Positions 4,774 through 61,103 are shown, counted from the stretch's first letter. The stretch is 64,000 bases of DNA from Bacteroidota bacterium (GCA_016213435.1 JACRAL010000093.1:13670-77669); one strand, 5' to 3'. Numbers and translations: made by a program. The notes: generated from the letters alone by a model not told the origin.

Positions 4774-4944
4774 ATGATATCACTCGGAATTGAATACTCT
4801 CCTCCGCCCACCAAAAAGGAAATCCGCGAATGGAAAAAATGGAGAAAGGAGATGAACAGGATAGAGGAAATGTACATGCCGAAAGCTACTCCCCACAATA
4901 AGAAGAACATTAAAAAGAAAGACAATAAAAAACCAGGAAAATGA
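4774..4944 (+). CDS. Small basic protein (56 aa), paralog of 60912..61103
   Basis: Hand translation gives MISLGIEYSPPPTKKEIREWKKWRKEMNRIEEMYMPKATPHNKKNIKKKDNKKPGK. The N-terminal 30 aa match MISLGLELPSPPPSAKEIREWHKWRKEMN of the other copy. Its TGA stop overlaps the ATG at 4941 (ATGA). It is absent from the ORF track only because it is under 60 aa. Confidence 0.55.
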   Translation: MISLGIEYSPPPTKKEIREWKKWRKEMNRIEEMYMPKATPHNKKNIKKKDNKKPGK

Positions 4945-5378
4945 AAAAACTTTTAGCGCTTATCGCCACCATCATCTTATTTGCCATCGTTCTTTCTTCT
5001 TGCAAAAGTCATGAACTTTGTCCTGCTTATGGAAAAACGGATATGAAAATAATAACAGCGGGAAATACCCCATTTTCCACTGAAAACACATCAACTCAAT
5101 GTGTAAGCTCATTAACTCCGGGTGCAAGCGCATTAACTCCGGGTGCGAGACCTTCAACTCCGGGTGCAAGCGCATTAACTCCGAATGCGAGACCTTTAAC
5201 TCCGGGTGCAAGCGCATCAACTCCGAATGCGAGACCTTTAACTCCGGGTGCAAGCTCATCAACTCCGGGTGCAAGCGCATTAACTCCATGTGAAAACTCA
5301 TCAACTCCAGGTGCAAGCTCATCAACTCAATCTATAGTTAAAAGAAAGAATTCATCATTTACCATTCATAATTTATAA
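4941..5378 (+). CDS. Lipoprotein with tandem heptapeptide (LTPGASA/LTPNARP) repeats
   Basis: Signal peptide plus lipobox (VLSSC). The coding sequence contains ten or more 21-bp repeats. Confidence 0.6.
   Translation: MKKLLALIATIILFAIVLSSCKSHELCPAYGKTDMKIITAGNTPFSTENTSTQCVSSLTPGASALTPGARPSTPGASALTPNARPLTPGASASTPNARPLTPGASSSTPGASALTPCENSSTPGASSSTQSIVKRKNSSFTIHNL
5108..5330. repeat. 21-bp tandem repeat (TTAACTCCGGGTGCAAGCGCA-like), about 10 units, inside the lipoprotein CDS
   Basis: Direct reading of the sequence; the units stay in frame. Confidence 0.8.
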
Positions 5379-20664: not shown

Positions 20665-22443
20665 TCAAAAGTAATTTACGATTCCAAAATTCACCTTGCC
20701 TGCTTTCAAATTAATGGGATTAGTAAACTCTCTACCCAGCGCGTAGTTAATGGAAAAAATTCCTGCCTTAGTTTCAAAACTAATGCCCGCACCAAAACCA
20801 TAAGGCGTATCATAGCGGTCACCGATAAAGGAAACGCTGTGATTTTCATAATAGGCTGCATCGCCAAAAAAATAGAGATAAGAATTTTCTTCAAGCAGGT
20901 AGCGGTATTCAAGTGTAAAAATAGAATACTGCGAAGCAAAAATAGATTCCTCATCAAAACCGCGCAAGGTTTTAAATCCACCGATCCTGTACAATTCATT
21001 CCGAAACATATTATCATTCTGCAGGTAAGCGGATCTGTTTCCTATTTTCAGCGTACTCCTGTTTTTTATCGGGACAAAAATCTCAGCTTCAAATTCAGAA
21101 GAGTACTGAACCGAATTTAATTTCAGTCCATTATAAATATTTGCATCGAGTTTCGGATTCTGCTTAATGGTTTTATTTCCCGCACCAATCGTTACAAAAA
21201 CGGAATATCCTCTTCTTGGATTCAGGCGATAATCTAATCTCTCGGATTTAAAGCTGATCCCGTATATAGAGGAAGTAATGTCGGCATACGGAGGAAGCGT
21301 GATGATGTGTTTTAATCCTGTCGTAGCAATCAGTGTCATCTGCCTGCGGTTGACGAATGCTTTGAAATAATTTCCTCCCGAAAGAAGATATTGTATTCCG
21401 AAGTTCGGATTCACTTCTAAATAAGTAGAATCCTTTTTGTAAAGTTTAAAACTGGCATCAATCCCAAACGGAGTTTTAAACAGGAATGGGAAAACGAAAT
21501 GCGTTTTTAGGTCCTGCGTACTTGCCTGCAAGCGCTTCCAGTTGAGCTCAAACAGTTCTCCGCGATAGAAAGCATTGTTGAGTTTCAGATGAGCATCTCC
21601 TGTAAGAAGAACTTTTCCGGTTTTGTTATCGGGAAGCAGACCCACAATTCCGTCAAACTGACTCGCATTTTTTTTCTCAAGAAACAATTCCAGTTTTGCA
21701 TTTGCTCCCGGAAATAAAACCCTGTATGGAATTCGTTCTTTTACAAACGAAAGCTCCTTGACTCGTGTACCGACCTTTCTTATCAGAGACTCATTATACA
21801 GATCACCGCTTTTAATGGAAAGATGACTTTGTAAATACACAGAGGAAATTTTCGCTGATCCATGATTTACTACGCTATCAATTTTAAGAAGATTATTTTT
21901 TTGCAGATTAATGCAAGCTGAAATCGAAACATTCGAAATAACAATGCTGTCTAATTTTACCGAAGCAAAAGGATAACCGTTGTTTTCGCAGTACGTAAGA
22001 ATTTTTTCTTGAAGTTTTCGGACATCCTTGAAGTAAAGCGGTTTCCCCGCCTCACCCCTAGCCCCTCTCCGAAGGAGAGGGGGATTTACTTCACGCAGAA
22101 TTGCTTCTTCCACATTTCCTTTTAGGAGCGTTGCCCATTTGTATTGTTCACCTGTTTTGATATAAATTACCTCACCCCATACCTCCTCTCCCACAGGAGA
22201 GGGAAGTTCGACCACACTATCAACTGAAGCTGAGAGATAAGCATTATCGTACAAGCTGAAAAGAACATTCTGAATTTCTTTGTCGCGTTCTGTTTCTGAT
22301 AGGAAAGTTTTTTTGTAGGAAATCTTGTTTAAAATTTCGCTTGATTGAGAAGGTTTTATCTCCAAAAAAAATAACTTCTGAGCAAATGCTTCAACTCCGC
22401 ACAGCATGACAAGAGAAAAAAGCAAAAGAAAAAACCGTTTCAT
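20665..22443 (-). CDS. Omp85-family outer membrane protein (BamA/TamA-like)
   Basis: 592 aa with a signal peptide. The C-terminal beta-barrel ends in GKVNFGIVNYF. Contains two in-frame palindromic elements. Confidence 0.55.
   Translation of the reverse strand: MKRFFLLLFSLVMLCGVEAFAQKLFFLEIKPSQSSEILNKISYKKTFLSETERDKEIQNVLFSLYDNAYLSASVDSVVELPSPVGEEVWGEVIYIKTGEQYKWATLLKGNVEEAILREVNPPLLRRGARGEAGKPLYFKDVRKLQEKILTYCENNGYPFASVKLDSIVISNVSISACINLQKNNLLKIDSVVNHGSAKISSVYLQSHLSIKSGDLYNESLIRKVGTRVKELSFVKERIPYRVLFPGANAKLELFLEKKNASQFDGIVGLLPDNKTGKVLLTGDAHLKLNNAFYRGELFELNWKRLQASTQDLKTHFVFPFLFKTPFGIDASFKLYKKDSTYLEVNPNFGIQYLLSGGNYFKAFVNRRQMTLIATTGLKHIITLPPYADITSSIYGISFKSERLDYRLNPRRGYSVFVTIGAGNKTIKQNPKLDANIYNGLKLNSVQYSSEFEAEIFVPIKNRSTLKIGNRSAYLQNDNMFRNELYRIGGFKTLRGFDEESIFASQYSIFTLEYRYLLEENSYLYFFGDAAYYENHSVSFIGDRYDTPYGFGAGISFETKAGIFSINYALGREFTNPINLKAGKVNFGIVNYF
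22050..22084. repeat. GC-rich palindromic element copy, in frame
   Basis: CCTCACCCCTAGCCCCTCTCCGAAGGAGAGGGGG; encodes LRRGARGEAG in the host ORF. Confidence 0.7.
22170..22203. repeat. GC-rich palindromic element copy, in frame
   Basis: CCTCACCCCATACCTCCTCTCCCACAGGAGAGGG; encodes PSPVGEEVWGEV. Confidence 0.65.
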
Positions 22444-31446: not shown

Positions 31447-31629
31447 TTGAGCAATATATTTTTGCATTGTCATGATAAGCGTACCCGAAACATCTATTAT
31501 TAAAAAAAATCCTTCCATTATGTCCATGGTGACATTTGTGTAATGATTATGATTTTTGAGGTGTCTCTATGCAGATTATGTGGTTGATGCCACATCCTTT
31601 GCTCCACTTGAAGAAAGAAATGAAGTTGT

Positions 31630-32382
31630 TTAAAGTTGACGTAGTAAAATCACAGTACATGCTAATAGGTTGAGAGCTTTCCAATGAATTTTATTTGTTT
31701 CAAAACGCACCAAAAGTGCCTTGAATCCATCCATCCAAGCATTTGTTCTCTCTATGACAAATCTGCATTTGTAGAGCAAATCGTCAAAAATATATTCAGC
31801 AGGATTCCCGTTTCTTTTATTCTGGTCAATATTGGATATGATGTCATTTTGGTAGCAATAATTGCGAAACTCTTTTGTGTCAAAACCCGAATCAGCATTT
31901 AAAAACAGTCCCTCTGTAGGAATTGTTGAATCGCGTATGTCCTGCAACATGGTATCAACGGTCTTCTCTAAATTATAGGCATCATTATGATTGCCCTCTA
32001 CCGCTTCGCTGCAAGCCAATGGCGTGCCTTGATTGTCAGCTATGATAAGCATATTGCTTGTCTTGCATTTTTTTCTTCCTTGATATGCTACTGCTTCTCC
32101 TCCACGTTTGGAAGGGGTATGCGTACCGTCCAATTGTATGCTGGATAAATCAAGTATGCCCTTATGCTTTTCTAATGTCTTGTTCCAAACCATTTCCCAA
32201 CTACCATCTTTACACCATTTCTGAAAATGGTAGTAAACACTTTGCCATTTGTATCTGGTTCTAAAAAATTGCTTCATGGGTAATTCTCTCCATTGACATC
32301 CTGTTTTTAACCTGAATAGTATCGCTTCTACTACGTGTACTTGTTTTACTTTGGTGTTGCCTAAATGATTGCCAAATTTCAA
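31630..32382 (-). mobile_element. IS5-family (DDE) transposase gene, possibly 5'-truncated
   Basis: 250 aa containing LKTGCQWRELP and the C-terminal DDE region. It begins with TTG and lacks the usual ~25-aa N-terminal segment. No terminal inverted repeats were identified. Confidence 0.75.
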
Positions 32383-32559
32383 ATGTGGGCAAATCTCTTT
32401 TTTATTGTATTTTTGTTTATCATTTTTTTTCTTCTTTTTTGAAAGAAAGATGCGGATTATTGTTTAGCAATATTTTGTCGTCTTTCTTTCTTTTAAACAG
32501 CCAACCTTAAACAACTTCAATTAGTAAATCGGATTCAATACCTGTAATAATAAAGATAA

Positions 32560-32637
32560 CCGAACAAATAAAGGTACAGTTCCTATAAAACCTTGAACTG
32601 TTCTTGTTCAACTTTGAGTAGTTCCTGTACAACCTTA
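32560..32637. repeat. About 80-bp leader sequence, direct repeat of 39679..39757
   Basis: CCGAACAAATAAAGGTAC(A/C)GTTCCTAT(A/G)AAACCTTGAACTGTTCTTGTTCAACTTTGAGTAG... is about 95 percent identical in both copies. Confidence 0.8.
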
Positions 32638-33170
32638 AACTGCCCTTATGAAACCTTGCACTTCTTTGATGCAACATTGAGCAACTTCTGTGCAACCTTG
32701 AGCAACTCCTGTGTAACCTTAAACAGCCCCTACGCAACATTGATCAGTTCCTGTGTAACCTTAAGCAGACCCTACACAACCTTGAGCAGTTCCTGCGTAA
32801 CCTTGAGCAGCTCCTGTGTAATCTTGCACTGTCTTGATGTAATGTTGCGGAGGAGCAAATACACATGTGGAAGTAGCAAGCACATGTGTGGAAGGAGCTG
32901 ACACATGTGTGGAAGGAGTAAGCACACATGCGGAAGTAGTAGGCACATGTGTGTAATGAACGAGTACATGTGTGAAAGAAGCGAGTACACATGTGGAAGG
33001 AGCAAGCACATGTGTGGAAGAAGCTGGTACATGTGTGGAAGAAGCGAATACACATGTGGAAGTAGCAGTCATATGTGTTGAAGTAGCGAGTACACATGTG
33101 GAAGAAGACGGAACATGTGTTTTTGCACTAAAAACACATGTGTATGCAATAAATACACATACCTTAGCGT
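32592..33170. repeat. 21-bp minisatellite of about 27 units
   Basis: Strict 21-bp periodicity. The consensus switches near 32845 from ACCTTGAGCAGNTCCTGTGTA to ACATGTGTGGAAGNAGCNAGC. No single frame stays open across the array. Confidence 0.85.
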
Positions 33171-33191: not shown

Positions 33192-33830
33192 ATGAGAAAC
33201 ATTATTCCAAAGCTCGGACTCAAGTTTCTGCGCGATGCTGAGCTTACCGAGTATGCGTATGAAAAGGTGGAAAAGATAAACGCTGCTGCCGGGTTTGCCG
33301 GCATTGTTCCCTCCGCAGCCGATGTGAGAGCCAAAACCCTGCAATACGATGCCGCGCTTGTGAAAGCGGATAACGGAACAAGGGCGGACACTGCAAAGAA
33401 AAACGCCCTGCGCACAGAACTGGAACAAATGCTTATGTATCAGGCGTCAGATGCAGCCCGGATTGCCAGCGGAGATATGGCATTGTATTTAAGATCGGGG
33501 TATGCGGCAAAGAATGTGAAAGGGAGCCCGGGCGGTGAACTTCCTGAAGTAAGGGGAGTGCAGCTCTCTTATGGCAACAATACCGGTGAGCTGAAAATAA
33601 AATGGAATACGCTGCTCAAAGCGCAAAACTTCATTGTGCAGGTGTATGCGGACAACGCCCACCCCGAAGCATCCCTCATTAAAGAATATTTTTTCAATAA
33701 AATAGGAAGAAAGAAAACCACTCTGAGCGATCTGCCATCGGGGAAAATTGTTTTTGTAAGGGTAAGGGCTAATGGCGGAAGCACCGGGCAGGGACCCTGG
33801 AGTGACGTTACGGAGAAGAGGGTGCCGTGA
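33192..33830 (+). CDS. Hypothetical protein with a possible Ig/FN3-like C-terminal domain
   Basis: 212-aa ORF. Confidence 0.4.
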   Translation: MRNIIPKLGLKFLRDAELTEYAYEKVEKINAAAGFAGIVPSAADVRAKTLQYDAALVKADNGTRADTAKKNALRTELEQMLMYQASDAARIASGDMALYLRSGYAAKNVKGSPGGELPEVRGVQLSYGNNTGELKIKWNTLLKAQNFIVQVYADNAHPEASLIKEYFFNKIGRKKTTLSDLPSGKIVFVRVRANGGSTGQGPWSDVTEKRVP

Positions 33831-36061: not shown

Positions 36062-36159
36062 TGCATTAGTTTTAAGAAAAGAATAGATGAATGTAAGAAA
36101 TTAAGTGATTACTCAGCAGGAAAGATAAAACAAGGTTGATTAGAGATAGCGTAATTTTG

Positions 36160-36203
36160 TCCGAACAGTTCTCTCCGATGTTCATCGGAGAGACACGGAT
36201 GGG
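36160..36203. repeat. 42-bp direct repeat containing the perfect palindrome TCTCTCCGATG-TT-CATCGGAGAGA
   Basis: Matches 39603..39646 with about 5 mismatches. Together the two copies bracket the restriction-modification module. Confidence 0.8.
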
Positions 36204-36210
36204 AAGGAAT

Positions 36211-36672
36211 TTAAAACAGCGAAAGCTGTTCGGGCTTATCGGTAGAGGTCTTTTCTCCCGATAATTGTCGGGATTTCGCTTCGCTCAATTTTTCCTGAGA
36301 TTTTGTTTCTTCTTCTTCTTGAGATTGCTTCACTTCGTTCGCAATGACGGTGGAGCTTGCTTCCTTCAATATTTCCTGACGCTGTTCTACTTTTTCTTCA
36401 AAGAATTCCATATCGGCAATAGCCAGTTCCATTTCGCTGGGAACATCGGCAATATTGTTTATGGCTTTGCGAATGCGCGCCTCAATTACCTGACTGCGCC
36501 AAATTCTTAAAAGTTCAAGAGAAGATGTCATCTTTTCCTTCTCGGCAATTACGGATTGCTTATGAATAATATCAAGGTGTTTTTCTAACTTCTTGTCAGA
36601 AAATGTGGTCATCTGCGCAATATATTCTTCTGCGTGTTCAAGGGCTTGACGTATTTGGATTTCGGTGCTCAT
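36211..36672 (-). CDS. Acidic coiled-coil protein of unknown function, translationally coupled to the RM gene
   Basis: 153 aa. Its ATG overlaps the stop of 36669..39557 (ATGA). Confidence 0.5.
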   Translation of the reverse strand: MSTEIQIRQALEHAEEYIAQMTTFSDKKLEKHLDIIHKQSVIAEKEKMTSSLELLRIWRSQVIEARIRKAINNIADVPSEMELAIADMEFFEEKVEQRQEILKEASSTVIANEVKQSQEEEETKSQEKLSEAKSRQLSGEKTSTDKPEQLSLF

Positions 36673-39557
36673 TCTTGCTTGCCTTCAATTATTTTGATTT
36701 CCTTGTCGGTTAAATTATACAATTCATACACAAGCTGGTTTATTTTTTCTTCGCTATGTTCAATGCGTTGTTTTAAATGCTCAGTTTTGCTTTGGAGTTT
36801 TTCTTCTTGGAATTCTTCGTTCAATTTCAGAAGCAAATCAACGTGTTTTACAATTTCATCATGTTTTTCTTTATTAAATTTATTTTCAAAATCAATTTCT
36901 CTTATCGGTAAATTTGCTACGTTGGTTTTCTTTACTTCCGCTAGTGCTTCACCTTTTTCTGGATTCAGAGTTTGATAGTACCAATTTAAGGTTTTAGAAT
37001 TGATAATGCCAAGGAGAAAAAGTAAACTGACCTTTGTATTTTCTTTTGGAACAAGTACGTGCATATTATTCAGGCAGAGCAGTTTTGTTTTATCAAGAGT
37101 AGCAATTAAGCTATCTCCAGTTTGGCGCATAAATATCTTTTCAGGCGCGTCAAAATTGGCTGATTGTCTTGGCTCTGCAAGCCATTCACCGAACTTAATA
37201 TACCTTTCCTCGAGAGCATTTATAACATAGCGGTTCATGTCCTTCCCTCTTAAATACTTTCTATATGCTTTATCCTTTTTCTTGTCACTATCAAAAACAC
37301 GATTTTCAACATCTCCTCTGGTTTGCTTTGGATTTCCTTTACCAACTTGATAAGGTTTTATTCCGACATTAATATCAATATAGGTTTCGAGTGGTTTGGT
37401 ATGTTCTTGTGTTTTTTTGAAAAGCTTTTTTTCAAATTCATTCAAGAAAATATTTACCACTTCGCCATCTTGATCTATCCATTCTTTTTGAGAATGAATA
37501 AATTCGGTGTGCTTGCCATTAAATAATGGCTTTCCTTTCTCGACAACGGTAATTCTAACTTTGTTCGACTTAGGATTCTTTTTTGAAAGAAGAATAATTT
37601 CTGTATCTACAGTTACATCAGGAAATACGGGGTCTTTGAAATGCACGATTTCATTAACGGCTACAGTTTCAAAAATAAATTTTCTTAATCCTTTTTGCAA
37701 AAGATTAGTAAGCCAAGGATTAGGAATGATCATTCCAAAATTTCCATCATTTTTTAAAAGAACCTTGACGGATTGTTCGAGAAAGATTAAATAACTATCT
37801 AACTGATAATTTTGGTTAGAATATTTTTTAAGTAAATACTTTTTCTGCTCCTCTGAAAATTCTGCACCATACGGAGGATTACCGATAACTACATCAAAAG
37901 CTCCATTTTTAAATACATCAGGGAATCCTTTTTTCCAGTTGAACGGATGAATTTTTGATGAACTATCAAAATCAAATTCTTCATCTAAATCTATTAGACT
38001 ATTTCCATTCTTAATATTATTATCCAAATCGGGAAGAATGCGCTCGTGAAAAACACTTAACTGCTGTTTGATGCTGGCTTCGGTTTCGCCTTCCATACAC
38101 TTGAGGAGCAAACTTAGTTTGGTTACTTCCACCGCGTTTGCGTCAATATCCACTCCGAAAATATTATTGAGCAGTATTTTCTTTTTCTCGGAAGTGGTAA
38201 GCCCGCCTCCATTCTTTCCTGTGAGGGAAGGAGCTAATGCTTTTGCTTTCTTGGCTTCTGCGGGATGATGGTGATACCAGTTCACATGGTATTGAACCAA
38301 ATATTGAAACGCACCGATAAGAAACGAACCGCTTCCGCAGGCGGGATCAACTATTTTCAGTTGAGCTATTTCTTTCGGTGTTTTGCCTTCAATGAGTTTT
38401 CCGACTGTGTTTTTTACAATGTACTCCACAATGTATTGGGGCGTGTAATACACACCGCCTGCCTTGCGCACTTCGGGCTTTACTTCAATGCGTGCGCTGT
38501 GCGAAGATGTGATGCGTATTACTTTTCCGAGAAACTGTTCGTAAGCATTTCCGAGAACCTCCACGGGCATTACGCGAAAAACATAGGGAGAGGGGTAATA
38601 TAGATCCTCTATAATTTTTTTCAGCACTTTATTTTTTATCGTGAGCTTTTCCGAAATGCTGTCTTTCTTAAAATCAAATAACCCGCTGTTGTATTTATCA
38701 TCGGCTCGCTTGAATAAATCATACAAGTTGTCGTAAGAATTGCCGTGTGAAACTGCTTTTTGCAACTGCCCGTATTGCTCAACTCCCCGATCTTCACAGA
38801 AGCGAAGAAAAATCAGCCGGTCAATGGTTTGCTGAACGACAAAATTTATTTCTTCTTCATTCAGTTTTTTATTTTCAAGGGCAATGCTTGTCGCCAAATA
38901 TTTTCTCCAGCTATCGAGGGATTCAACAAAATCTTTGTCGAGCGTTTGTGTTCCTTTTTTGTAGGTGTCGCTCTGAACAAATTTATCGAAGTGTCCGCTG
39001 TAAACTGCTTCGTGCGAAAAAGTGTCGTAAAGAAAATCAAACTCTTTTATGTAGTCCTCGAAATGAATGTACTTGATGCGCGCAGAACTCGCGCTGTCGC
39101 TTTGCTTGGGGCTTCTGGTGCAATCGTAAATAATAAATTCTTCAAAGTTGGTAAGGATTGAAACGGGAGCTTGCGCGCTTCGCCCATAAATGCGCAACTG
39201 GTATGATGCTTCCCTGTTTGTCTTGAGTGAAACGGATGGCTTTTTTGCTTCCACAAAGAAAAGACGTTTGTCACTCTGCCCCGCTACGCGGAAACCATAA
39301 TCGGGGGCTTTCATTTGTCCCTTAACTCTTACTTTATCTTCGTGAATTACTTCGCGGTAAGATTCTATCCTGTCTTCTTCATGGCTCACGTCCCATCCCA
39401 AGGCGTGAAAAAACGGATTGATAAGTCCGATTCTTGTCTTGGTTTCGTTATAATCAGCAGTATGATATTCCTCCCGATGCTCTCGGAAGCGTTTAACAAG
39501 TCCTTCTATGGTGGCTTTCGCCTGGTCTCTGGTCATTTGCATAAAAAAAGCAGCCAA
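36669..39557 (-). CDS. Type IIG (single-chain) restriction-modification enzyme with an N-terminal PD-(D/E)xK nuclease, a gamma-class N6-adenine methyltransferase, and a target-recognition domain
   Basis: 962 aa. N-terminal D-YGFRV...FVEAKK. Methyltransferase motif I VDPACGSGSFL and motif IV NPPYG. Confidence 0.8.
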   Translation of the reverse strand: MAAFFMQMTRDQAKATIEGLVKRFREHREEYHTADYNETKTRIGLINPFFHALGWDVSHEEDRIESYREVIHEDKVRVKGQMKAPDYGFRVAGQSDKRLFFVEAKKPSVSLKTNREASYQLRIYGRSAQAPVSILTNFEEFIIYDCTRSPKQSDSASSARIKYIHFEDYIKEFDFLYDTFSHEAVYSGHFDKFVQSDTYKKGTQTLDKDFVESLDSWRKYLATSIALENKKLNEEEINFVVQQTIDRLIFLRFCEDRGVEQYGQLQKAVSHGNSYDNLYDLFKRADDKYNSGLFDFKKDSISEKLTIKNKVLKKIIEDLYYPSPYVFRVMPVEVLGNAYEQFLGKVIRITSSHSARIEVKPEVRKAGGVYYTPQYIVEYIVKNTVGKLIEGKTPKEIAQLKIVDPACGSGSFLIGAFQYLVQYHVNWYHHHPAEAKKAKALAPSLTGKNGGGLTTSEKKKILLNNIFGVDIDANAVEVTKLSLLLKCMEGETEASIKQQLSVFHERILPDLDNNIKNGNSLIDLDEEFDFDSSSKIHPFNWKKGFPDVFKNGAFDVVIGNPPYGAEFSEEQKKYLLKKYSNQNYQLDSYLIFLEQSVKVLLKNDGNFGMIIPNPWLTNLLQKGLRKFIFETVAVNEIVHFKDPVFPDVTVDTEIILLSKKNPKSNKVRITVVEKGKPLFNGKHTEFIHSQKEWIDQDGEVVNIFLNEFEKKLFKKTQEHTKPLETYIDINVGIKPYQVGKGNPKQTRGDVENRVFDSDKKKDKAYRKYLRGKDMNRYVINALEERYIKFGEWLAEPRQSANFDAPEKIFMRQTGDSLIATLDKTKLLCLNNMHVLVPKENTKVSLLFLLGIINSKTLNWYYQTLNPEKGEALAEVKKTNVANLPIREIDFENKFNKEKHDEIVKHVDLLLKLNEEFQEEKLQSKTEHLKQRIEHSEEKINQLVYELYNLTDKEIKIIEGKQE

Positions 39558-39602
39558 ATATACACTTTATGAGGGAGAAATTTGGATGGTTTATAAATTT
39601 TG

Positions 39603-39646
39603 CCCGAGCAGTTCTCTCCGATGTTCATCGGAGAGACTCTGATGGG
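39603..39646. repeat. Second copy of the 42-bp palindrome-containing direct repeat
   Basis: See 36160..36203. Confidence 0.8.
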
Positions 39647-39678: not shown

Positions 39679-39776
39679 CCCGAACAAATAAAGGTACCGT
39701 TCCTATGAAACCTTGAACTGTTCTTGTTCAACTTTGAGTAGCTCCTGTGTAACCTTAAGCAGACACTATGCACACC
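39679..39776. repeat. Second copy of the minisatellite leader plus about 4 repeat units
   Basis: See 32560..32637. Overlaps the 3' end of the cyclase gene. Confidence 0.75.
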
Positions 39777-44145: not shown

Positions 44146-46863
44146 TCAGGATAGAAACTTCTTCGCAGTTGCTATCGCCTTATCAAGACCATCCGCATTT
44201 GTTCCTCCCGCAGTAGCATAAAATGGCTGTCCGCCTCCACCGCCATTTATTTCTTTAGCAAGTTCTTTCACAATATTTCCGGCATGAAGTTTTTTGTCTT
44301 TCACAAGATTATCGGAGAGCATAACGGTAAGTTGCGGTTTTCCATTCACGATTGCGCCAAGAACAAGAAAAAGATTTTCAACTTCACCTTTTAGTCCAAA
44401 GGCAAGATTTTTTATTGCATCAGAAGAGTCTAGATCAATTGTTTTTGCTATAAAATTTATCGTGCCAGATGGTTTTACTCCTGCGGTCATATATCTTGTT
44501 TCTAATCTTTCTATTTTACTAAGAAGATCACTCCTGATATCGTTAGTCCTTTCATATAACCATACCGCTATCTGCCTTTGAAATTCAAAATTTTGTTTCT
44601 GCAAATCCTGAATAGCAGCAATAACATCTTTCGGATGCTTGAGCAATTCTTTTAATTCGTTCAGCGTTCCAATCTGACGATTGATATATTCTTCCGCTTT
44701 CAGGGCGGTTACCGCTTCTATCCTGCGGATACCAGCCGCTACCGCGCTTTCAGAAGTAATTTTAAAATACCCAATTTGTCCGGTTGCGGGAACATGAGTT
44801 CCTCCGCAAAGTTCTATAGAGTAATTTTTGTCGAAAGTTACCACGCGCACTGTGTCTCCGTATTTTTCTCCAAACAAAGCCATTGCACCCGATTTCTTTG
44901 CCTGTTCAATTGGCATTACTTGAGTATGTCCAGAAATATTTTCACGGATTTTTTCATTTACAATTGCTTCGATCTTCGCCAGTTCTTCATCCGTAACTTT
45001 TGAAAAATGTGAAAAGTCGAAGCGCAAATGCTCCTCATTCACCAGCGAACCTTTTTGCTCCACATGTTTTCCAAGCACATGCCGTAAAGCCGCATGAAGC
45101 AAATGCGTTGCAGTGTGGTTGTTCATTATAAGCTGACGTTTTAGCTTATCTACTTTTGCTATTGCCTTGTTATCATGTGGTAATCTAGGTTTTGTATCTA
45201 CAATATGAATAATCATTCCATCTTCCTTCTTTGTACCTAATACTTTTAACTCTTGCTTGTTTTCAGGAAATATAATACTACCTGTGTCGCCAATTTGTCC
45301 ACCGCTTTCGGCATAAAATGGTGTTACACCTAAACAAATTTGATATAAGTCCTTACCTTTAATATTTACCTTTCTATATCTTGCAATTATTGTTTCGTTT
45401 TCAAGTGTGTCATAACCAATAAATGCCCCACCAACGGAACGGACTACTAAATCCGTCCAGTCACTTTTATCCACTTTCGCGTCTTCACGCGAGCGGAACT
45501 TTTGTTTTCCAAGTTCAGCTTCAAACGCTTCCTCATCAATGCTCAGTCCATACTGGCGCGCAATGAGCGAAGTGAGATCCACCGGAAATCCGTATGTGTC
45601 ATAAAGTTCAAAAACGGTTTTCCCGTCAATTACTTTTTCTGTTTTTGAGTTTGACAAAGGAATACAAACTGCATCGATTTTTTTCAACCCTTGTTCCAGT
45701 GTGCGGAAGAAAGCGGTTTCTTCTTCCTTAATTACCTTCTCTGTAAAAAGTTTTTCCTTTTCTATTTCCGGAAAAAATGTTCCCATCTGATTGGCGAGAA
45801 CAGGAACGATTCGGTATAAAAATGGTTCTTTAATTCCGAGCGATTGGTAGCCGTAGCGGACTGCTCTGCGCAAAATTCTTCGTATTACATAACCCGCTCC
45901 TGTGTTAGAAGGAAGTTGTCCGTCTGCAATTGCAAATGAAATGGCGCGGATGTGATCGGCAATTACACGCATGGCAACATTTGTAATTTCTGCCTGAGGA
46001 TTGCTGTCCTCTCCATGATAACGCAGTCCGCACAAGTCTTCAATTCTACGAATGATGGGTTGAAAAACATCAGTGTCGTAAGTGGATTTTTTATTCTGAA
46101 GCACCATGCACAATCTTTCAAATCCCATTCCGGTATCCACATGCTGAGCTGGAAGTTTTACCAGCGAGCCATCTGCTTTGCGGTTGAACTCCATGAAAAC
46201 AAGATTCCACACTTCTATCACTTGAGGATTCCCTTTGTTCACCAATGTTTTTCCATCCACCTTTTCGCGCTCGCGATCATCACGCATGTCAACATGAATT
46301 TCAGAACATGGACCGCAGGGACCGGTTTCTCCCATCTCCCAGAAATTATCTTTTTTAGAACCATTAATTATTCGAGATGGATTAATATAATTTTTCCAGG
46401 CATCAGCCGCTTCCTGATCGAAAGGAATCACCTCACCCCCACCCCCTCTCCCAGAGGAGAGGGGAGAAGTTCCTTCGAAAACTGTAACATATAATCTGTC
46501 TGGGGAAATCTGATACACTCCTGTAAGAAGTTCCCATGCCCATTTGATCGCTTCCTTTTTAAAATAATTTCCAAAACTCCAGTTACCGAGCATTTCAAAC
46601 ATCGTGTGATGGTAAGTATCGATTCCAACTTCTTCCAAATCATTATGCTTGCCGGAAACACGGAGGCATTTTTGCGTATCAGCAACACGCGGATATTTTA
46701 TCTTAGCATTTCCAAGAAAAAGATCTTTGAACTGATTCATTCCGGCATTGGTGAACATCAGCGTTGGATCGTTCTTTATCACAAGTGGAGCCGATGGCAC
46801 GATCTCATGGTCTTTCCCTCGGAAATATTCCAGAAACTTTTCTCTAACCTTAGCTGATTTCAT
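44146..46863 (-). CDS. alaS: Alanine--tRNA ligase
   Basis: 905 aa with class II aminoacyl-tRNA synthetase motifs, the editing domain and a C-terminal DHHA1-like region. Contains the in-frame palindromic element at 46431-46466. Confidence 0.95.
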   Translation of the reverse strand: MKSAKVREKFLEYFRGKDHEIVPSAPLVIKNDPTLMFTNAGMNQFKDLFLGNAKIKYPRVADTQKCLRVSGKHNDLEEVGIDTYHHTMFEMLGNWSFGNYFKKEAIKWAWELLTGVYQISPDRLYVTVFEGTSPLSSGRGGGGEVIPFDQEAADAWKNYINPSRIINGSKKDNFWEMGETGPCGPCSEIHVDMRDDREREKVDGKTLVNKGNPQVIEVWNLVFMEFNRKADGSLVKLPAQHVDTGMGFERLCMVLQNKKSTYDTDVFQPIIRRIEDLCGLRYHGEDSNPQAEITNVAMRVIADHIRAISFAIADGQLPSNTGAGYVIRRILRRAVRYGYQSLGIKEPFLYRIVPVLANQMGTFFPEIEKEKLFTEKVIKEEETAFFRTLEQGLKKIDAVCIPLSNSKTEKVIDGKTVFELYDTYGFPVDLTSLIARQYGLSIDEEAFEAELGKQKFRSREDAKVDKSDWTDLVVRSVGGAFIGYDTLENETIIARYRKVNIKGKDLYQICLGVTPFYAESGGQIGDTGSIIFPENKQELKVLGTKKEDGMIIHIVDTKPRLPHDNKAIAKVDKLKRQLIMNNHTATHLLHAALRHVLGKHVEQKGSLVNEEHLRFDFSHFSKVTDEELAKIEAIVNEKIRENISGHTQVMPIEQAKKSGAMALFGEKYGDTVRVVTFDKNYSIELCGGTHVPATGQIGYFKITSESAVAAGIRRIEAVTALKAEEYINRQIGTLNELKELLKHPKDVIAAIQDLQKQNFEFQRQIAVWLYERTNDIRSDLLSKIERLETRYMTAGVKPSGTINFIAKTIDLDSSDAIKNLAFGLKGEVENLFLVLGAIVNGKPQLTVMLSDNLVKDKKLHAGNIVKELAKEINGGGGGQPFYATAGGTNADGLDKAIATAKKFLS
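46431..46466. repeat. GC-rich palindromic element copy, in frame in alaS
   Basis: CCTCACCCCCACCCCCTCTCCCAGAGGAGAGGGGAG; encodes SPLSSGRGGGGEV. Confidence 0.75.
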
Positions 46864-47983: not shown

Positions 47984-49321
47984 ATGAAATCAAAAAAATA
48001 TATCGGTTTTTTCACAGCCACATCCATTGTCATTGCAAACATGATCGGCACCGGTGTTTTCACAAGCATGGGGTTTCAGGTAATGGGCATTCACTCCGGA
48101 TTTGCATTGTTGCTGCTTTGGGTGATTGGCGGAGTTGCCGCACTGACAGGCGCACTTTGTTACGGAGAATTAGGAGCTGCGCTTCCGCGTTCAGGAGGTG
48201 AGTATAATTTTCTTTCTCAGATTTATCATCCCACAGTGGGTTTTCTTTCGGGCTGGGTTTCTGCCACGGTGGGCTTTGCTGCTCCGGTTGCCGCTTCTGC
48301 CATCGCATTGGGGAGTTATCTCTCGCGGGTTTTTCCTTCATTCAACCCGATGTATGTTGCTTCTTGCATTGTAGTGCTGCTTACAGTTGTTCACGTCAGC
48401 AATGTAAAAACGGGAAGAGGAGTTCAAAATTTTCTTACCACCTTAAATGTAATAGTGATCTTCGGAATTATTGTTTTCGGAATTTTTTCTGCAAGAACCG
48501 GCAGTGTCCATTTCATGCCTGCTCAGGATGCAATAAAAGATATTTTGAGTCCTGCTTTTGGCGTAGCGCTTTTTTTTGTTTCGTTTGCCTATTCAGGATG
48601 GAATGCTTCCACCTATATTACAGGAGAGATCGACAATCCACAGAAAAATCTTCCCAAGTCGTTGTTCATCGGCACAATGCTGGTTTTGTTTTTATATGTG
48701 ATGTTGAACTTTATTTTCCTTTACACTGTTCCTTTAAGCGAGATGAAAGATGCAGGAGGTAATCCTGTTGTTGATATCGGTTCTGTGGCAGCTGTAAAAA
48801 TTTTCGGAGAAACAGGAGGAAAGGTTATAGCAGTCGTTATTTCCCTGCTCTTGCTTTCTTCTGTCAGTTCCATGATCATGGCAGGTCCTCGGGTTACGCA
48901 GGTAATGGGGGAAGATTTCCATTTGTTCCGTTTCTTTGCAAAGAAGAATAAAAACAATATTCCTTTCATTGCAATTTTAGCACAAAGCTGCATCACACTT
49001 TTTTTTATTTTCACATCCACATTTGAAGCCGTGATTACTTACATTGGATTTACCTTGAACCTGTTTACCTTTCTCTCCGTACTCGGGCTGTTTGTCCTCA
49101 GAATTAAAAAACCTGGCCTTTCCCGTCCATACAAAACATGGGGCTATCCCATAACACCAATAGTATTTTTATGCATGGGCGGATGGCTTTTGGTGTATGG
49201 ACTCATGTACAAGCAAACAGAATCACTGGCAGGATTGGCAACCGTGGGTATTGGCCTGAGCGTTTATTTTTTAGATCCTGCCCGCTTAGTACAAAATAAG
49301 GTTAATAAGACCGAAAAATAA
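47984..49321 (+). CDS. APC-superfamily amino acid / polyamine permease
   Basis: 445 aa with 12 predicted transmembrane helices and typical APC motifs. Confidence 0.8.
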   Translation: MKSKKYIGFFTATSIVIANMIGTGVFTSMGFQVMGIHSGFALLLLWVIGGVAALTGALCYGELGAALPRSGGEYNFLSQIYHPTVGFLSGWVSATVGFAAPVAASAIALGSYLSRVFPSFNPMYVASCIVVLLTVVHVSNVKTGRGVQNFLTTLNVIVIFGIIVFGIFSARTGSVHFMPAQDAIKDILSPAFGVALFFVSFAYSGWNASTYITGEIDNPQKNLPKSLFIGTMLVLFLYVMLNFIFLYTVPLSEMKDAGGNPVVDIGSVAAVKIFGETGGKVIAVVISLLLLSSVSSMIMAGPRVTQVMGEDFHLFRFFAKKNKNNIPFIAILAQSCITLFFIFTSTFEAVITYIGFTLNLFTFLSVLGLFVLRIKKPGLSRPYKTWGYPITPIVFLCMGGWLLVYGLMYKQTESLAGLATVGIGLSVYFLDPARLVQNKVNKTEK

Positions 49322-49334
49322 AACCATACAATTT

Positions 49335-50591
49335 ATGAAATCATCCCTGCTTACTTTTTTATTGCCCGCGTTTTTATTATTTATTTTCACTTCCGGAACA
49401 AGTTGCGGATCCGAGAAACAAAAGCAACAACAGGCAGAAGTAAAGATAGATTCTGTGAAGAAAGATTCCGTGAAAGTTGTTCCAAAACAAACAATTTCAT
49501 ACGATCGGAAATACAATGACATTGCGCGCTTCATTGCCGGCATCAATCAAACTCCGGGAAGCAGTTTAACAGGACTTGAAAAAAAAGAAAGCTGGCTGAA
49601 ATTTCAAAAATCAATCGACAGCAGTTGGAAAAAACTAGAAGCAAAACGCCTGAAGCCCATGCGCGACTGGGCGCAAACAGAACTGGCAGCGGCTAACTCC
49701 AGCGGCTCGGATGTTTTTTATCCCTTTGGCGGTCCTGATTTTCTGAACGTATTTACTTTTTTTCCTAACAGCCGTAACTACACCATTATCGGACTGGAAC
49801 CTCCCGGTGAGATTCCTTCTGATTTTACAAAAAATTCTGATCAGGAATTAGAAAAATATTTTGATGACGTTCACGTGTCACTGAGTACTATTTTTAAAGG
49901 AAATTATTTTATTACGAAACGAATGATCAACGAATTAAAATTCAGCGAACTTAAAGGAACTCTTCCCCTACTCCTTTTATTTGCCGAACGAACCGGAAAC
50001 ACCATCACTGACCTCAAGTATCTTTCAATGAATGCCGACAGCTCACTTTCCGAATTTCCATTAAATGTAAGTAATGAACAAAAAGAAAAAATATCCGGAG
50101 TAGATATTTCCTTTTTTACTGCAACCGATTCCTCCACCCTGCGCCATTGCTATTACTTTAGAGTGAATCTGCAAGACAATTATTTTAAAAATAATTTTGT
50201 TTATCAGCATTACCTCAATAACCAGACACCGGTTGTCACCTATCTTAAATCTGCGTCTTATCTTATGCACTACCCCACATTCTCAATGATTCGAAAAATA
50301 ATTTTGCACAATAGCGACTACCTTCTGCAAGATGATTCCGGAATTGCATTTAAGTATTTTGAGAAAAAAGTGTGGAATTTTAAATTCTATGGAAAATATA
50401 TTAAACCCACGCATGATTTCAGTTGGATCGAACAAAATGATCTTCAAGCTATCTATGCAACGGATACCACAATACGTCCTTTACCATTTGCACTTGGATA
50501 CAATTGGTACCGCGATGGAGTAAGCATGCTGCTTGCTGTAAAAAAGCAGATAAGTAGTGCTCAACCGGCAGCAGTAGAAAACAAGAAATGA
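49335..50591 (+). CDS. Hypothetical lipoprotein
   Basis: 418 aa with signal peptide and lipobox (FTSGTSC). Confidence 0.5.
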   Translation: MKSSLLTFLLPAFLLFIFTSGTSCGSEKQKQQQAEVKIDSVKKDSVKVVPKQTISYDRKYNDIARFIAGINQTPGSSLTGLEKKESWLKFQKSIDSSWKKLEAKRLKPMRDWAQTELAAANSSGSDVFYPFGGPDFLNVFTFFPNSRNYTIIGLEPPGEIPSDFTKNSDQELEKYFDDVHVSLSTIFKGNYFITKRMINELKFSELKGTLPLLLLFAERTGNTITDLKYLSMNADSSLSEFPLNVSNEQKEKISGVDISFFTATDSSTLRHCYYFRVNLQDNYFKNNFVYQHYLNNQTPVVTYLKSASYLMHYPTFSMIRKIILHNSDYLLQDDSGIAFKYFEKKVWNFKFYGKYIKPTHDFSWIEQNDLQAIYATDTTIRPLPFALGYNWYRDGVSMLLAVKKQISSAQPAAVENKK

Positions 50592-50776
50592 AAAAAATAT
50601 TAGACATATTAGTCCCTGTCCTTGCAATAGTACTTATTATACTTTTTTATGCTGTTATAATAGATATTTCTAATAGAGCACTAACTGTCGAAAAATCAAT
50701 ATTTGTGATTGCGGTTTTAATAATAAATTTTAGCTTATATCGTTTAAATAAAAAAATAAAAAAGAATGATCAGTAG
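50588..50776 (+). CDS. Small two-helix membrane protein
   Basis: 62 aa. Its start overlaps the upstream stop (ATGA) and its own 3' end overlaps the next gene by 11 nt. Confidence 0.35.
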   Translation: MKKILDILVPVLAIVLIILFYAVIIDISNRALTVEKSIFVIAVLIINFSLYRLNKKIKKNDQ

Positions 50777-52106
50777 TGTATCAATTGCTTCATTAAAAAA
50801 AGCTGTTGATATATCCTTAAGACATTACTCCATTGTTATTCTACTACTTTCTTTTTTCTCCTTTACTGATCTTTCATTTGCGCAAACCGTTCAGCCAAAG
50901 ACAGATGATTTGATCGAACGCATAATGAAGGCGCATCCGGAAAAATTTAAAAATATTCTAGAGTCCCCTCAGCAGTATCGTGTGCAAATTATTTACACGC
51001 AGATTAAACGCGATAAAAATAACCTCCCCCATTTCAGTCAACACACATATCATCTAAATAAGTACCATTATTTTTACCCTGCCAGTCTTGTTAAATTACC
51101 TGTGGCTGCTTTATCCCTTGAAAAAATAAACCGATTGAAAGCAGACTCTTTAAAATATTACCCGAAACTCTCTGCCTTATTCAAAGAAACAAGAATGAAG
51201 ATTGACAGCACATATTATTGTCAATCTGTTGTTGAAAAAGACAGCACCTCTGAGACAGGGTTTCCTTCCATCGCGCACTACATAAAAAAAATGATGCTGG
51301 TCAGCGATAACGATGCCTACACCCATCTTTACGAATTTTTAGGACAGGAATATGCAAACAATCGTTTATGGGAAAAAGGATACACGAGTGCCCGTATCAT
51401 TCACCGTCTCAAAATGTGCGATACCCTGCAGAACCGATACACCAATCCGATCCTTTTTCTGCATTCTGGCGGAGACACTATTTACAACCAGCGCATGCAG
51501 TATAATCCGCAACAATTAAAAAAATTTCTGGGAGTGGTAAAAGTCGGGAAGAAAAATATTGAAAATGGAAAATTAGTCGCCAAACCCAAAGAGTTTACCT
51601 ACAACAACTATTTATGCCTGCAGGATATTAACGATGTATTACTCTCCATCATGTTTCCTCAGGCAGCAATAGAAAAAAAACGGTTTCAGCTCATTACGGA
51701 TGATTATCATTTTCTTCGGAAATACATGTCAATGTACCCGACAGAATGCAATGCTCCGAAATACGACAGCGCAAATTATCATGACTGCTATAAAAAATAT
51801 CTTTTCTATGGAAATTCGAAAGATTCCATAACTGATAAGAACATCCGTATTTTTAATGTAGTGGGACAGTCGTATGGTTTTCTTTCGGATGTTGCATACA
51901 TAGCAGATTTTCAAAACAAGATCGAGTTTGCAATTTCGGCAGTGATCTATGTAAACAGCGATGGGATTCTCAATGATGGGAAATACGAGTACGATACCAT
52001 CGGCTTTCCTTTTTTAGCCAACCTCAGCAGAGCAATTTATGAATACGAAAAAAAGCGTAGCCGCTCTACTGTTCCTGATCTCAGTGAGTTTAAAATAGAT
52101 TATTAA
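50766..52106 (+). CDS. Serine hydrolase related to class A beta-lactamases
   Basis: 446 aa with SxxK (ASLVK) and SDN (VSDND) motifs. Confidence 0.5.
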   Translation: MISSVSIASLKKAVDISLRHYSIVILLLSFFSFTDLSFAQTVQPKTDDLIERIMKAHPEKFKNILESPQQYRVQIIYTQIKRDKNNLPHFSQHTYHLNKYHYFYPASLVKLPVAALSLEKINRLKADSLKYYPKLSALFKETRMKIDSTYYCQSVVEKDSTSETGFPSIAHYIKKMMLVSDNDAYTHLYEFLGQEYANNRLWEKGYTSARIIHRLKMCDTLQNRYTNPILFLHSGGDTIYNQRMQYNPQQLKKFLGVVKVGKKNIENGKLVAKPKEFTYNNYLCLQDINDVLLSIMFPQAAIEKKRFQLITDDYHFLRKYMSMYPTECNAPKYDSANYHDCYKKYLFYGNSKDSITDKNIRIFNVVGQSYGFLSDVAYIADFQNKIEFAISAVIYVNSDGILNDGKYEYDTIGFPFLANLSRAIYEYEKKRSRSTVPDLSEFKIDY

Positions 52107-59180: not shown

Positions 59181-60737
59181 TTATACTTTTTTTAAAGCCC
59201 CTCGAGAGATTCTAAATAGTTGTTTTGACTTCTCCTTCACCACATCCTCAAAAGTTTTATGCTGAATTTTGCTTTCCACCCAGCTTAGAAAGTCAAACTC
59301 CTCCATCGCTACTTTCTCCAATGGGTCTTTCATCAGTTTCAATAAGGTGGTTTTTAATACATGGAAAGCAAGAATGCGTTCATGTTTGTCAATAGACACT
59401 TTCATAACCTGATGCAGGCAATTCATCAAAGCTTTTTCCAATTTAAAAAGTCGGTTTTGTTTGGAAAGGAGATATAGAGTGCTTCGTTGTAATGATTTCA
59501 GCAGTTGAGCATCCTTATGTATTTCGTAGTGGATGAGCAGGAAAAGAATACGTGCCGCTGCGTACACATCATGCCGGAATGCGCCTTCGGGCTGTTCAAC
59601 TATTTTTTGGGTCCAGAATAATGCTTTGTTATAGCTGCCTGCACCAAAAAGCATATAGGCGATATTATAATAAAGAATAATTGGACTAACAGCAGGATCT
59701 TTGTTCAGAAAATCATTATTTGCTTCTATCGCTTTTATAACCGGAAATACTTTTTCAAAATCCCCCGTCCGCATGAACGCGTTTAATTCATTTATATAGG
59801 AATTTGACCAGTACGAGATTTTGAGTGAGTGTGAGGCAATGGGATAGGCACGTATTTTATTCAGCAATATCTGCATTTCTTCATATAAATTATGATTGAC
59901 AGATAAAAGATATCCTATGAAAATCACTGACATGTTCAGTCCGAAGAGATATCTCTTTCCATAGTCTCTTAATTGATGCGAGTGTGTTTCTATAAATTTA
60001 CATTGCTCTTTTGAGAGTTCATATCCTCGAATAAAGTCCCGCTTAAAAAAATAATAAAGAGACCACACTTCATAATAAGTTGCTTTTGCCTCTGCGCAGG
60101 ATGCCTGCTTTAAATTGCGTAAAAGAGGATGCCGCATAAGCTTTGTAATAAACACTTGTTCCTTTTTTGTGCGCATGGGTTCCGCTTCATGGATTTTCCG
60201 TGTTATCTTATAGTGTAGCGTTCGGTAGTCATCAATGTTGTTTAGCTTTTTGAGTACAGTTTTTATTTCTTCATTCAGATGAGACATTTTTAACAGCTCC
60301 TGTGCCGAATAAGGAATTCTTTCCATAATTAAAATTTCCATCAATAGTTCCCAGTGTTCATGCTGATATGCAATGCTCTTGGCTGCCCTTAATAGCTTCA
60401 GTGCCTGGTCAGTAAGCCCTTTGTCTAAAAGAATCCCGGCTTTGCTGATCTGGCTGCGCAGGTTTATATCCGTGCTGTTGTGGTAATTTTCCAAGCTGCG
60501 GAGAATACTATTATGAAGGCGCCTTTTAGCAACAGAAAGATGCCGCAGGAACTTTTGCCCGCGGCAGGTGTTGCGGATAGCGCCCTCATCATACCTGTTT
60601 TGTTTTTCTATAACATCATATAATACCAGATAGTTCTTGTCTCCACCTTTCAGCGAAGACAACATTTTGAAATACTTCTTTTCTGCCATGCTGAGGGAAT
60701 GGATCAAGTCAAAAATTGAAGTGCTTGTTTTTTTCAT
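59181..60737 (-). CDS. Hypothetical all-helical protein, paralog B of 2999..4534
   Basis: 518 aa, collinear with paralog A. Confidence 0.6.
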   Translation of the reverse strand: MKKTSTSIFDLIHSLSMAEKKYFKMLSSLKGGDKNYLVLYDVIEKQNRYDEGAIRNTCRGQKFLRHLSVAKRRLHNSILRSLENYHNSTDINLRSQISKAGILLDKGLTDQALKLLRAAKSIAYQHEHWELLMEILIMERIPYSAQELLKMSHLNEEIKTVLKKLNNIDDYRTLHYKITRKIHEAEPMRTKKEQVFITKLMRHPLLRNLKQASCAEAKATYYEVWSLYYFFKRDFIRGYELSKEQCKFIETHSHQLRDYGKRYLFGLNMSVIFIGYLLSVNHNLYEEMQILLNKIRAYPIASHSLKISYWSNSYINELNAFMRTGDFEKVFPVIKAIEANNDFLNKDPAVSPIILYYNIAYMLFGAGSYNKALFWTQKIVEQPEGAFRHDVYAAARILFLLIHYEIHKDAQLLKSLQRSTLYLLSKQNRLFKLEKALMNCLHQVMKVSIDKHERILAFHVLKTTLLKLMKDPLEKVAMEEFDFLSWVESKIQHKTFEDVVKEKSKQLFRISRGALKKV

Positions 60738-60911: not shown

Positions 60912-61103
60912 ATGATATCACTCGGACTTGAGCTTCCCTCTCCTCCACCCTCAGCAAAAGAAATCCGCGAATGGCACAAATGGAGAAAGGAGATGAACCT
61001 GTTGATGGAAGAAACCGCCTCGCGCAAAAAAAAAGCCCACCCCAAAAGGGTAAAAAACACAAAACAAAAATCAATAAATAAAACCAATCATGAAAACATT
61101 TAA
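60912..61103 (+). CDS. Small basic protein (63 aa), paralog of 4774..4944
   Basis: MISLGLELPSPPPSAKEIREWHKWRKEMN... Its 3' end overlaps the start of 61090 by 14 nt. Confidence 0.55.
   Translation: MISLGLELPSPPPSAKEIREWHKWRKEMNLLMEETASRKKKAHPKRVKNTKQKSINKTNHENI

Follow-up and report, generated by a model that had tools for sequence, protein, structure and literature searches.

What does a small protein contribute when its gene is translationally coupled to that of a large single-chain restriction-modification (RM) enzyme, and what is the pair of hairpin repeats between which the two genes lie? These questions are raised by a locus on the chromosome of an uncultured Bacteroidota bacterium (GCA_016213435.1, JACRAL010000093.1:13670-77669), of which a stretch of 64 kb was analyzed; we refer to this whole stretch as the window, and all coordinates are counted from its first nucleotide. 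What is new here, as far as sequence can tell, is a Type IIG RM module with a dedicated, conserved and unannotated partner protein, the sole recognisable feature of which is a tail with the consensus of a motif that binds the beta sliding clamp (DnaN). The hairpin bracket is a local peculiarity and is not part of the conserved system.

Both module genes are on the minus strand. The RM gene (36669-39557) forms an open reading frame (ORF) of 962 amino acids (aa) when read from a TTG codon, although its true start is likely to be the ATG at 39542 or that at 39536. The TTG falls within a Bacteroidetes-type -7 promoter box (TATATTTG, 39555-39562, minus strand); the deposited protein has 957 aa from ATG 39542 and is a 100% match to P0028, and the consensus N-terminus of the homologues (MTRE...) favours ATG 39536. 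The box follows the known TAnnTTTG consensus, from which we take it as the candidate promoter of the module, and a AAAGTGTATATTT block around it is common to the regions upstream of three related modules (loci L001, L005 and L024). The partner gene (36211-36672, stop codon 36211-36213) encodes 153 aa, and its ATG shares bases with the TGA of the RM gene in the overlap ATGA; an earlier note on this DNA had reported this overlap, and it is seen in the sequence. The G+C content of the module (0.38-0.41) is not distinct from that of the window (0.40).

The partner represents a real, previously unannotated protein family. Its close homologues number 27; they are 47-75% identical to it and mostly 134 aa long, and every one of them is unnamed and comes from an uncultured sample. 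A profile search of 1.84 billion representative sequences assembled 134 partner-family clusters, with no match to the family in Pfam, NCBIfam, PADLOC or the PDB. In five other contexts, each with different flanking genes, a partner homologue is found directly 3' of an orthologous Type IIG gene of 927-953 aa. This arrangement holds in every informative context that was fetched through the partner, the contigs of the distant homologues P0173 and P0199 being too short to inform. The RM and partner genes overlap by 4 nucleotides (nt) in L001, 11 nt in L002/L003 and 8 nt in L005, whereas in L023 a diverged partner homologue of 117 aa has its called start 19 nt past the RM stop, and in L024 an IS200-like Y1 transposase gene is present between the two. 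Two of the three loci that were picked via the enzyme and not the partner (L023 and L024) have a partner gene. Judged by gene order, the RM and partner genes are conserved as a two-gene module within a single subclade centred on Bacteroidota. The 153-aa ORF had been proposed to be a true coupled partner, and its conservation beside orthologous RM genes upholds that proposal; the database check for it next to Type IIG genes had been named beforehand as the test on which the proposal could fail, and conservation is what it found.

A phage or plasmid origin of the module was considered and rejected, since phage records, plasmid records and viral contigs gave no match to the partner, and the plasmid matches of the RM protein are of only 37%. 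Related modules are found in defence islands, in which a RelA_SpoT-domain protein with a 79-80-aa partner recurs upstream, possibly as a toxic small-alarmone-synthetase toxin-antitoxin pair, and putAbiC or Shedu SduA is directly downstream (L002 3990-5103; L003 1788-2901; L005 2345-3431; L023 7241-8395; L002 8425-9708).

Three parts can be recognised in the partner (all coordinates on the minus strand): a conserved helical N-domain (aa 1-104; 36361-36672) and a variable, acidic, low-complexity linker (aa 105-148; 36229-36360), both defined from the alignment of 27 sequences, and a C-terminal pentapeptide, QLSLF (aa 149-153; 36214-36228), which is a candidate beta sliding-clamp binding motif. 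The linker of the window protein carries a 19-aa insertion relative to most homologues. AlphaFold2 (AF2) predicts a compact helical domain over residues 1-72 with a predicted local distance difference test (pLDDT) score above 90, followed by a low-confidence long helix and a disordered tail; the pLDDT is 42-46 over the last 30 residues, and there is no secondary structure past residue 134. The earlier description of the protein, which has an isoelectric point of 5.0, as an acidic coiled coil is thus only roughly right. The N-domain apparently also occurs within a giant protein of 3717 aa (P0248; match at aa 1262-1307). A controller (C) protein was among the candidates rejected. C proteins are small helix-turn-helix DNA-binding proteins whose gene is usually upstream of the nuclease gene; Pfam and domain scans of the partner give no helix-turn-helix family match, a fold search yields generic helical bundles only, the protein is acidic, and its gene is downstream of the RM gene.

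The QLSLF tail is the most informative feature of the partner, and the earlier note overlooked it. The alignment of the close homologues ends with ...PEQLSLF at the extreme C-terminus, and Q149, L150, L152 and F153 are invariant in all 27 sequences while the preceding 40 residues vary. The motif was also counted in the divergent family, using the representatives 115-160 aa long (57 of the 134 clusters) and the pattern Q[LMVT]x[LMF]F within the last 11 residues, and it is present at the C-terminal end of 41 of these 57 full-length sequences. Position 1 is Q and position 5 is F in all 41, position 2 is L in 34 and position 4 is L in 39, and ten different residues occur at position 3. Among the other 16 representatives some are truncated immediately ahead of the motif or show a near-miss, QLFFDF for example; the diverged partner of L023 ends in QMSLF. 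Taken as a putative binding motif, the family pattern is exactly the QLxLF clamp-binding pattern. No clamp-type C-terminal ending occurs in any of 120 RM homologues, and the partner is the sole ORF of the window that has one. QLSLF has been described as a 'full consensus' beta sliding-clamp binding motif and is the conserved C-terminal motif of PolC, and clamp-binding motifs are usually found at protein C-termini (PMC4549789, PMC12309361); the partner pentapeptide fits both QL[S/D]LF and the looser QLxLF. In the structural model, the partner tail is an accessible, disordered terminus with a consensus clamp-binding motif. The general scans found no dnaN among the window ORFs scanned.

The larger protein, by its predicted domains, is a single-chain Type IIG RM enzyme. 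An N-terminal PD-(D/E)xK nuclease domain (Pfam HSDR_N, aa 36-151; 39105-39452; 29.4 bits against a cut-off of 25.1) includes PDYG (39294-39305) and VEAKK (39240-39254); a gamma-class N6-adenine methyltransferase domain (Pfam, aa 334-676; 37530-38558; Eco57I E=7.8e-41, N6_Mtase E=2.7e-21) includes motif I DPACGSGSF (38322-38348) and motif IV NPPYG (37866-37880); and a TaqI_C target-recognition domain (Pfam, aa 767-885; 36903-37259; E=3.2e-22) follows, all on the minus strand. The PADLOC model REase_MTase_IIG (PDLC03604) matches aa 12-733 with an E-value of 4.9e-204. These matches agree with the single-chain Type IIG assignment made previously, and the motifs reported for the 962-aa protein (nuclease FVEAKK, motif I DPACGSGSF and motif IV NPPYG) are all present. 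In an alignment with 14 homologues (54-69% identity), P80, D81, E98, A99 and K100 of the nuclease, the whole of DPACGSGSF, and N555-P557 of motif IV are invariant, with Y558 nearly so; since the catalytic motifs are invariant, the enzyme is expected to be active. The recognition region is variable among the homologues, as expected because specificities differ. The RM family has at least 8000 matches at E<=1e-20, and this protein, considered as an enzyme, is new to the Type IIG class but ordinary within it.

The label 'MmeI-like', which the protein had been given, suits its architecture but not its sequence: MmeI_N scores 16.9 bits, below the cut-off of 27, the Pfam scan finds no MmeI target-recognition or C-terminal domain in the RM protein, and MmeI_Mtase is above its cut-off (58 bits) but weaker than Eco57I (140 bits). 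The relatives of solved structure are TaqI-, BseCI- and BrxX-type and other adenine methylase domains, and no chain named MmeI or DrdV is among the matches at E<=1e-3.

What might a clamp-binding tail do beside such an enzyme? When a single-chain enzyme modifies one strand only, replication yields one daughter duplex that is unmodified, and such an enzyme must tell newly replicated host sites from foreign DNA (PMC2582602; bioRxiv 10.1101/2021.01.06.425610). Since a daughter duplex would be left unmarked, a clamp tether would be useful in giving host sites priority for methylation. We propose that the second gene encodes a translationally coupled small adaptor, the folded helical N-domain of which probably binds the enzyme, while its disordered acidic tail, ending in QLSLF-COOH, would bind DnaN. 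The enzyme would thereby be concentrated on the DnaN clamps that remain on the DNA behind replication forks, and host sites that briefly lack modification once they have been replicated would be the first to be encountered, and would be methylated instead of cleaved. The chances for and against the partner binding the clamp with a functional role seem to us evenly balanced. Somewhat below that, yet a serious proposition, we place the reading of the module as a new accessory class, in which a dedicated adaptor couples a single-chain Type IIG enzyme to the beta clamp and replication marks 'self', directing maintenance methylation or suppressing cutting; the specific 'methylate first' role of the tether is more doubtful still.

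Several observations weigh against this proposal. Both contacts on which it depends, that of the N-domain with the enzyme and that of the tail with DnaN, are predicted only, and short linear motifs can be misassigned. The self/non-self problem would be relevant here only in so far as this enzyme modifies one strand. Some members of the partner family (P0216, P0222, P0233, P0257 and P0279) consist of the N-domain only, at ~70 aa, and have no tail; the tail is therefore an add-on module, and the N-domain has a role that is independent of it. Finally, the close RM homologue of L025 (64% identity) has a Y1 transposase gene after it and no partner, and distant RM homologues on plasmids (37% identity) also have no partner; the partner is therefore dispensable for the enzyme class.

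Some of the same evidence could be accommodated if the partner were a structural or regulatory subunit, serving in assembly or as a switch between cutting and methylation, with a C-terminal peptide that binds the enzyme or another host factor, as a protease adaptor might. The tight translational coupling and strict adjacency of the genes, the N-domain-only family members, the generic helical bundles returned by the fold search and the sequence-based nature of the DnaN link are all consistent with such a subunit. We nevertheless consider it unlikely, since it is specifically clamp motifs that combine fixed Q, L, L and F, a free position 3 and a place at the very end of the chain, behind a disordered acidic linker, and we know of no other C-terminal docking motif that fits the partner tail as well.

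The clamp motif would serve equally well in a clamp-directed effector or sensor, one that steers restriction to phage or plasmid DNA in the course of active replication with the host clamp, or that poisons the clamp and halts replication upon loss of the module or another trigger, as in addiction or abortive infection. Clamp-binding toxins such as SocB are known, and the related modules, being in defence islands, have RelA_SpoT pairs, putAbiC and Shedu SduA among their neighbours. The partner, however, has no toxin-like domain, its N-domain being a small helical bundle, and it is co-translated with the enzyme, not kept in check by an antitoxin. An effector of this sort and a methylation tether are indistinguishable by computation; we think the effector quite improbable, and favour the adaptor that couples the enzyme to the clamp.

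The hairpin repeats raise a separate question. Repeat A1 (36153-36203, palindrome 36170-36193) is 7 nt past the partner stop codon, and repeat A2 (39596-39646, palindrome 39613-39636) is 53 nt upstream of the RM ATG at 39542 and ~120 nt downstream of a cyclase gene; the 53 nt between A2 and the RM start hold the candidate promoter. The two are direct repeats of 51 nt, identical at 47 of the 51 positions, with an identical 29-nt core, CAGTTCTCTCCGATGTTCATCGGAGAGAC, and a perfect 11+2+11 palindrome, TCTCTCCGATG-TT-CATCGGAGAGA, in both copies. Folded as single-stranded DNA, the hairpins have energies of -10.6 to -13.5 kcal/mol (z = -3.2 to -4.8). The pair had been described as near-identical direct repeats that contain a perfect palindrome and flank the two genes, which is accurate, except that they are longer than the 42 bp reported.

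Exactly two copies of repeat A are present in the 64 kb, and none in 100 shuffles. The repeat is missing from the other module loci examined, in which the next gene is usually within 6-60 nt, and a fuzzy search of all fetched loci found none. When genome and metagenome collections, which do not include the source genome, were searched for the palindrome with patterns of 18 and 20 bases, only unrelated bidirectional terminators (A-run/stem/T-run) with different flanks were recovered.

Two known types of hairpin were tried and rejected. An intrinsic terminator would not fit: there is no T-run after the stem (CACGGATGGG on the plus strand, ACTGTTCGGAC on the minus strand), and a terminator scan lists neither hairpin. 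An integron cassette would not fit either. The inverted repeats of an integron attC site are imperfect, contain extrahelical bases and have a GTTRRRY core, whereas here the palindrome is perfect, with a 2-nt centre and no GTTRRRY core, and no integrase was found among the ORFs scanned at ~18-56 kb.

The hairpins could also belong to a genome-wide family of small palindromes, either terminator-like or resembling repetitive extragenic palindromic (REP) sequences or miniature inverted-repeat transposable elements (MITEs), two members of which flank the module by chance or by settling in intergenic gaps. The same genome does have a second palindromic element in several copies (CCTCACCCC..CCCCTCTCC-loop-GGAGAGGGG); one copy is inserted in frame in alaS, and the stem of the element has CTCTCC/GGAGAG in common with repeat A. 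Both A copies are just 3' of minus-strand genes, and stems with the same CTCTCCGATG act as bidirectional terminators in unrelated metagenomes. Yet the only two copies of the 64 kb both abut the module, neither strand has a T-run after the stem, and the similarity of A1 and A2 extends 17 and 10 nt past the stem, unlike that of convergent terminators. We regard such a family as possible though doubtful. The copy count, in covering only 64 kb of the source genome, leaves room for a dispersed family.

The genomic setting bears on the origin of the repeats. Apart from one IS5-family element, the ORFs scanned at ~18-56 kb have housekeeping functions (TypA, AlaRS, DnaB, folate and queuosine enzymes, RmuC and others), and the transposase of that element is the only recombinase that the ORF scans found within ~15 kb of the module. 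Two relatives with an orthologue of the cyclase (86% and 84% identical) have the same order of DnaB, MerR, M23, AlaRS, SulP and cyclase genes, and synteny with them ends at the cyclase stop codon. The window has none of the genes that follow in the relatives (DUF4369-thioredoxin, epimerase and others), and neither A repeat is present in the relatives. Judged by this synteny, the module is in a lineage-specific, rearranged segment, and since synteny ends at the cyclase stop codon and the relatives' downstream genes are absent, no empty site is recoverable.

This setting has to be weighed against the idea that the promoter, the RM gene, the partner gene and one hairpin repeat (3443 bp) form a mobile cassette, recombined at the hairpin site by a recombinase acting in trans, whether an HUH/Y1 transposase (IS200/IS605 or REP-associated) or a site-specific recombinase. 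The bracketing is tight (53 nt on the start side, 7 nt on the stop side); the repeats are both in direct orientation with their hairpins intact, and all four mismatches between A1 and A2 fall outside the 24-nt palindrome (p ~0.07 by our own count). The module is, moreover, at a synteny break, and in both L024 and L025 a Y1_Tnp gene adjoins a close RM homologue, while the gene calls P0039 and P0047 seem to be fusions of the two. A tblastn search of the window with the L024 Y1_Tnp protein, however, gave nothing (best E=2.8), no site-specific recombinase was found among the window ORFs scanned, and the repeats are missing at the other module loci examined and in the genome, metagenome and fetched-locus searches. 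The 8% divergence of the two copies makes any event an old one, and an empty site was not recovered. Neither the attC sites of integrons nor the imperfect ends of IS608-type elements resemble a perfect stem whose loop has 2-4 nt.

Mobilisation as a cassette thus strikes us as unlikely, and the suggestion of the earlier note that the repeats mark a mobilisation cassette or act as insulators is not supported: in the loci and collections searched they are private to this locus, the ORF scans found no nearby recombinase other than that of the IS5 family, and no empty site was recovered. Most likely, the two A copies are diverged descendants of one hairpin sequence that was duplicated when the module entered a variable, rearranged spot. 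The repeats would now be, at most, local stem-loops at transcript ends.

Other repeats and mobile elements are found in the vicinity. A 600-nt array of 21-nt tandem repeats (32560-33165), built of two units (AACCTTGAGCAGCTCCTGTGT, then AGGAGCAAGTACATATGTGGA) and containing no single ORF, is upstream of an unannotated 212-aa gene (33192-33830). The leader of this array (32560-32650) recurs beside A2 as repeat B2 (39680-39770; 91 nt, 89% identity), which begins at the cyclase stop codon; B2 is context and not part of the module, and it places the RM module inside a 7.1-kb segment bounded by an outer pair of direct repeats. The IS5-family element (31618-32522) encodes a 250-aa DDE transposase (DUF4096 and DDE_Tnp_4), has 32-nt terminal inverted repeats, and is 38 nt from the start of the array.

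Elsewhere, Y1 transposase genes (148 aa, IS200-like or similar to REP-associated tyrosine transposases, RAYTs) recur at the 3' end of close RM homologues, at 6784-7744 in L024 and 6800-7870 in L025. The L025 gene is between 149-nt direct repeats (93%) that cover the last 87 nt of the RM gene and hairpins, and REP-like hairpins (TTCAACC-N6-GGTTG) flank these Y1 transposase genes.

The second palindromic element mentioned above is a ~38-nt, G+C-rich family of the form CCTCACCCC-NNN-CCCCTCTCC-loop-GGAGAGGGG. One copy is at 46438-46461, inside alaS (44146-46863, minus strand), where it coincides with an in-frame 8-aa insertion (EGTSPLSSGRGGGGEVIPF versus QG-SP--------DENLSF in the relative L047); related copies are at 13940-13980 and 22045-22085, and looser ones at 2880, 4697, 23096/23183 and 60940. 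The copies at 13957 and 22062 are also within long ORFs, and these resemble the Rickettsia-type palindromic elements that insert into coding sequence.

The remainder of the window has further features. Another array with a 21-nt period (5039-5349, within 4941-5378) is coding, and specifies a small lipoprotein (signal peptide and Cys) with about ten heptapeptide repeats of (L/S)TPGASA. Genes for an amino-acid permease, a 418-aa protein of unknown function and a beta-lactamase-like protein (47984-52106) are found between the M23 peptidase and MerR genes, which are adjacent in L047, indicating a 4.3-kb insertion in the window or a deletion in L047. Long-range direct repeats pair 3019-3318 with 59222-59521 (300 nt, 73%) and 4797-4857 with 60938-60998 (61 nt, 87%); the genes beneath them, 2999-4534 and 59181-60737, are probably paralogues with similar upstream regions. 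Repeats with a period of ~700 nt are present at 62670-63976.

How hosts of such enzymes avoid self-cleavage is only partly explained, by slow methylation set against multi-site cleavage (bioRxiv 10.1101/2021.01.06.425610). If the partner is a clamp-binding adaptor, it would add a spatial solution to the self-cleavage problem that returns after each round of replication, and would be a bacterial analogue of the coupling of DNMT1 to PCNA. The PglX-type methylases of BREX may face the same one-strand issue. No paper joining clamp-binding motifs with RM systems was found in the literature searched, and as far as that literature goes this would be the first link between an RM system and the replisome. 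The clamp motif in any case provides an annotation handle for a family of ~130 sequence clusters.

Comparison with known systems sets the module apart in several respects. IS200/IS605 and RAYT elements and integron cassettes are alike in having direct hairpin repeats that bracket a promoter and genes, and Y1 genes do occur near RM homologues elsewhere; they differ in that no transposase or integrase, no more copies, and no excised or empty form were found here, and in that the stem is perfect and short-looped. The Type IIG enzymes with an Eco57I methylase and TaqI_C (PDLC03604) share the nuclease, the gamma-class methyltransferase with motifs I and IV and the C-terminal recognition domain in one chain, but while the module described here has a small conserved partner, the plasmid homologue of Psychrobacter stands alone and that of Xanthomonas has a separate methylase and a ribbon-helix-helix regulator. 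MmeI and DrdV (Type IIL) have the same domain order, and the one-strand replication problem is perhaps common to both (PMC2582602; bioRxiv 10.1101/2021.01.06.425610); the window enzyme is not a sequence member of that group, and MmeI and DrdV are described as acting alone.

The clamp-binding proteins PolC, Pol IV, MutS/MutL, Hda, IS transposases and NucS/EndoMS resemble the partner in that a flexible linker leads to the consensus pentapeptide at the very C-terminus, whereas here the motif is on a separate, non-catalytic adaptor dedicated to an RM enzyme. In eukaryotes, the DNA methyltransferase DNMT1 is brought to newly replicated DNA by a short peptide that binds the clamp PCNA. The logic proposed here is alike, although the proteins are unrelated, the motif would act indirectly, through an adaptor, the enzyme also has a nuclease, and the coupling is inferred only. 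The nearest precedent in the literature searched is NucS/EndoMS, a nuclease of the restriction-endonuclease fold that has a clamp motif and is recruited by the clamp (PMC11109965). The module is a member of neither the DNMT1-PCNA nor the NucS family, though if the proposed coupling holds it would be similar to both in its working.

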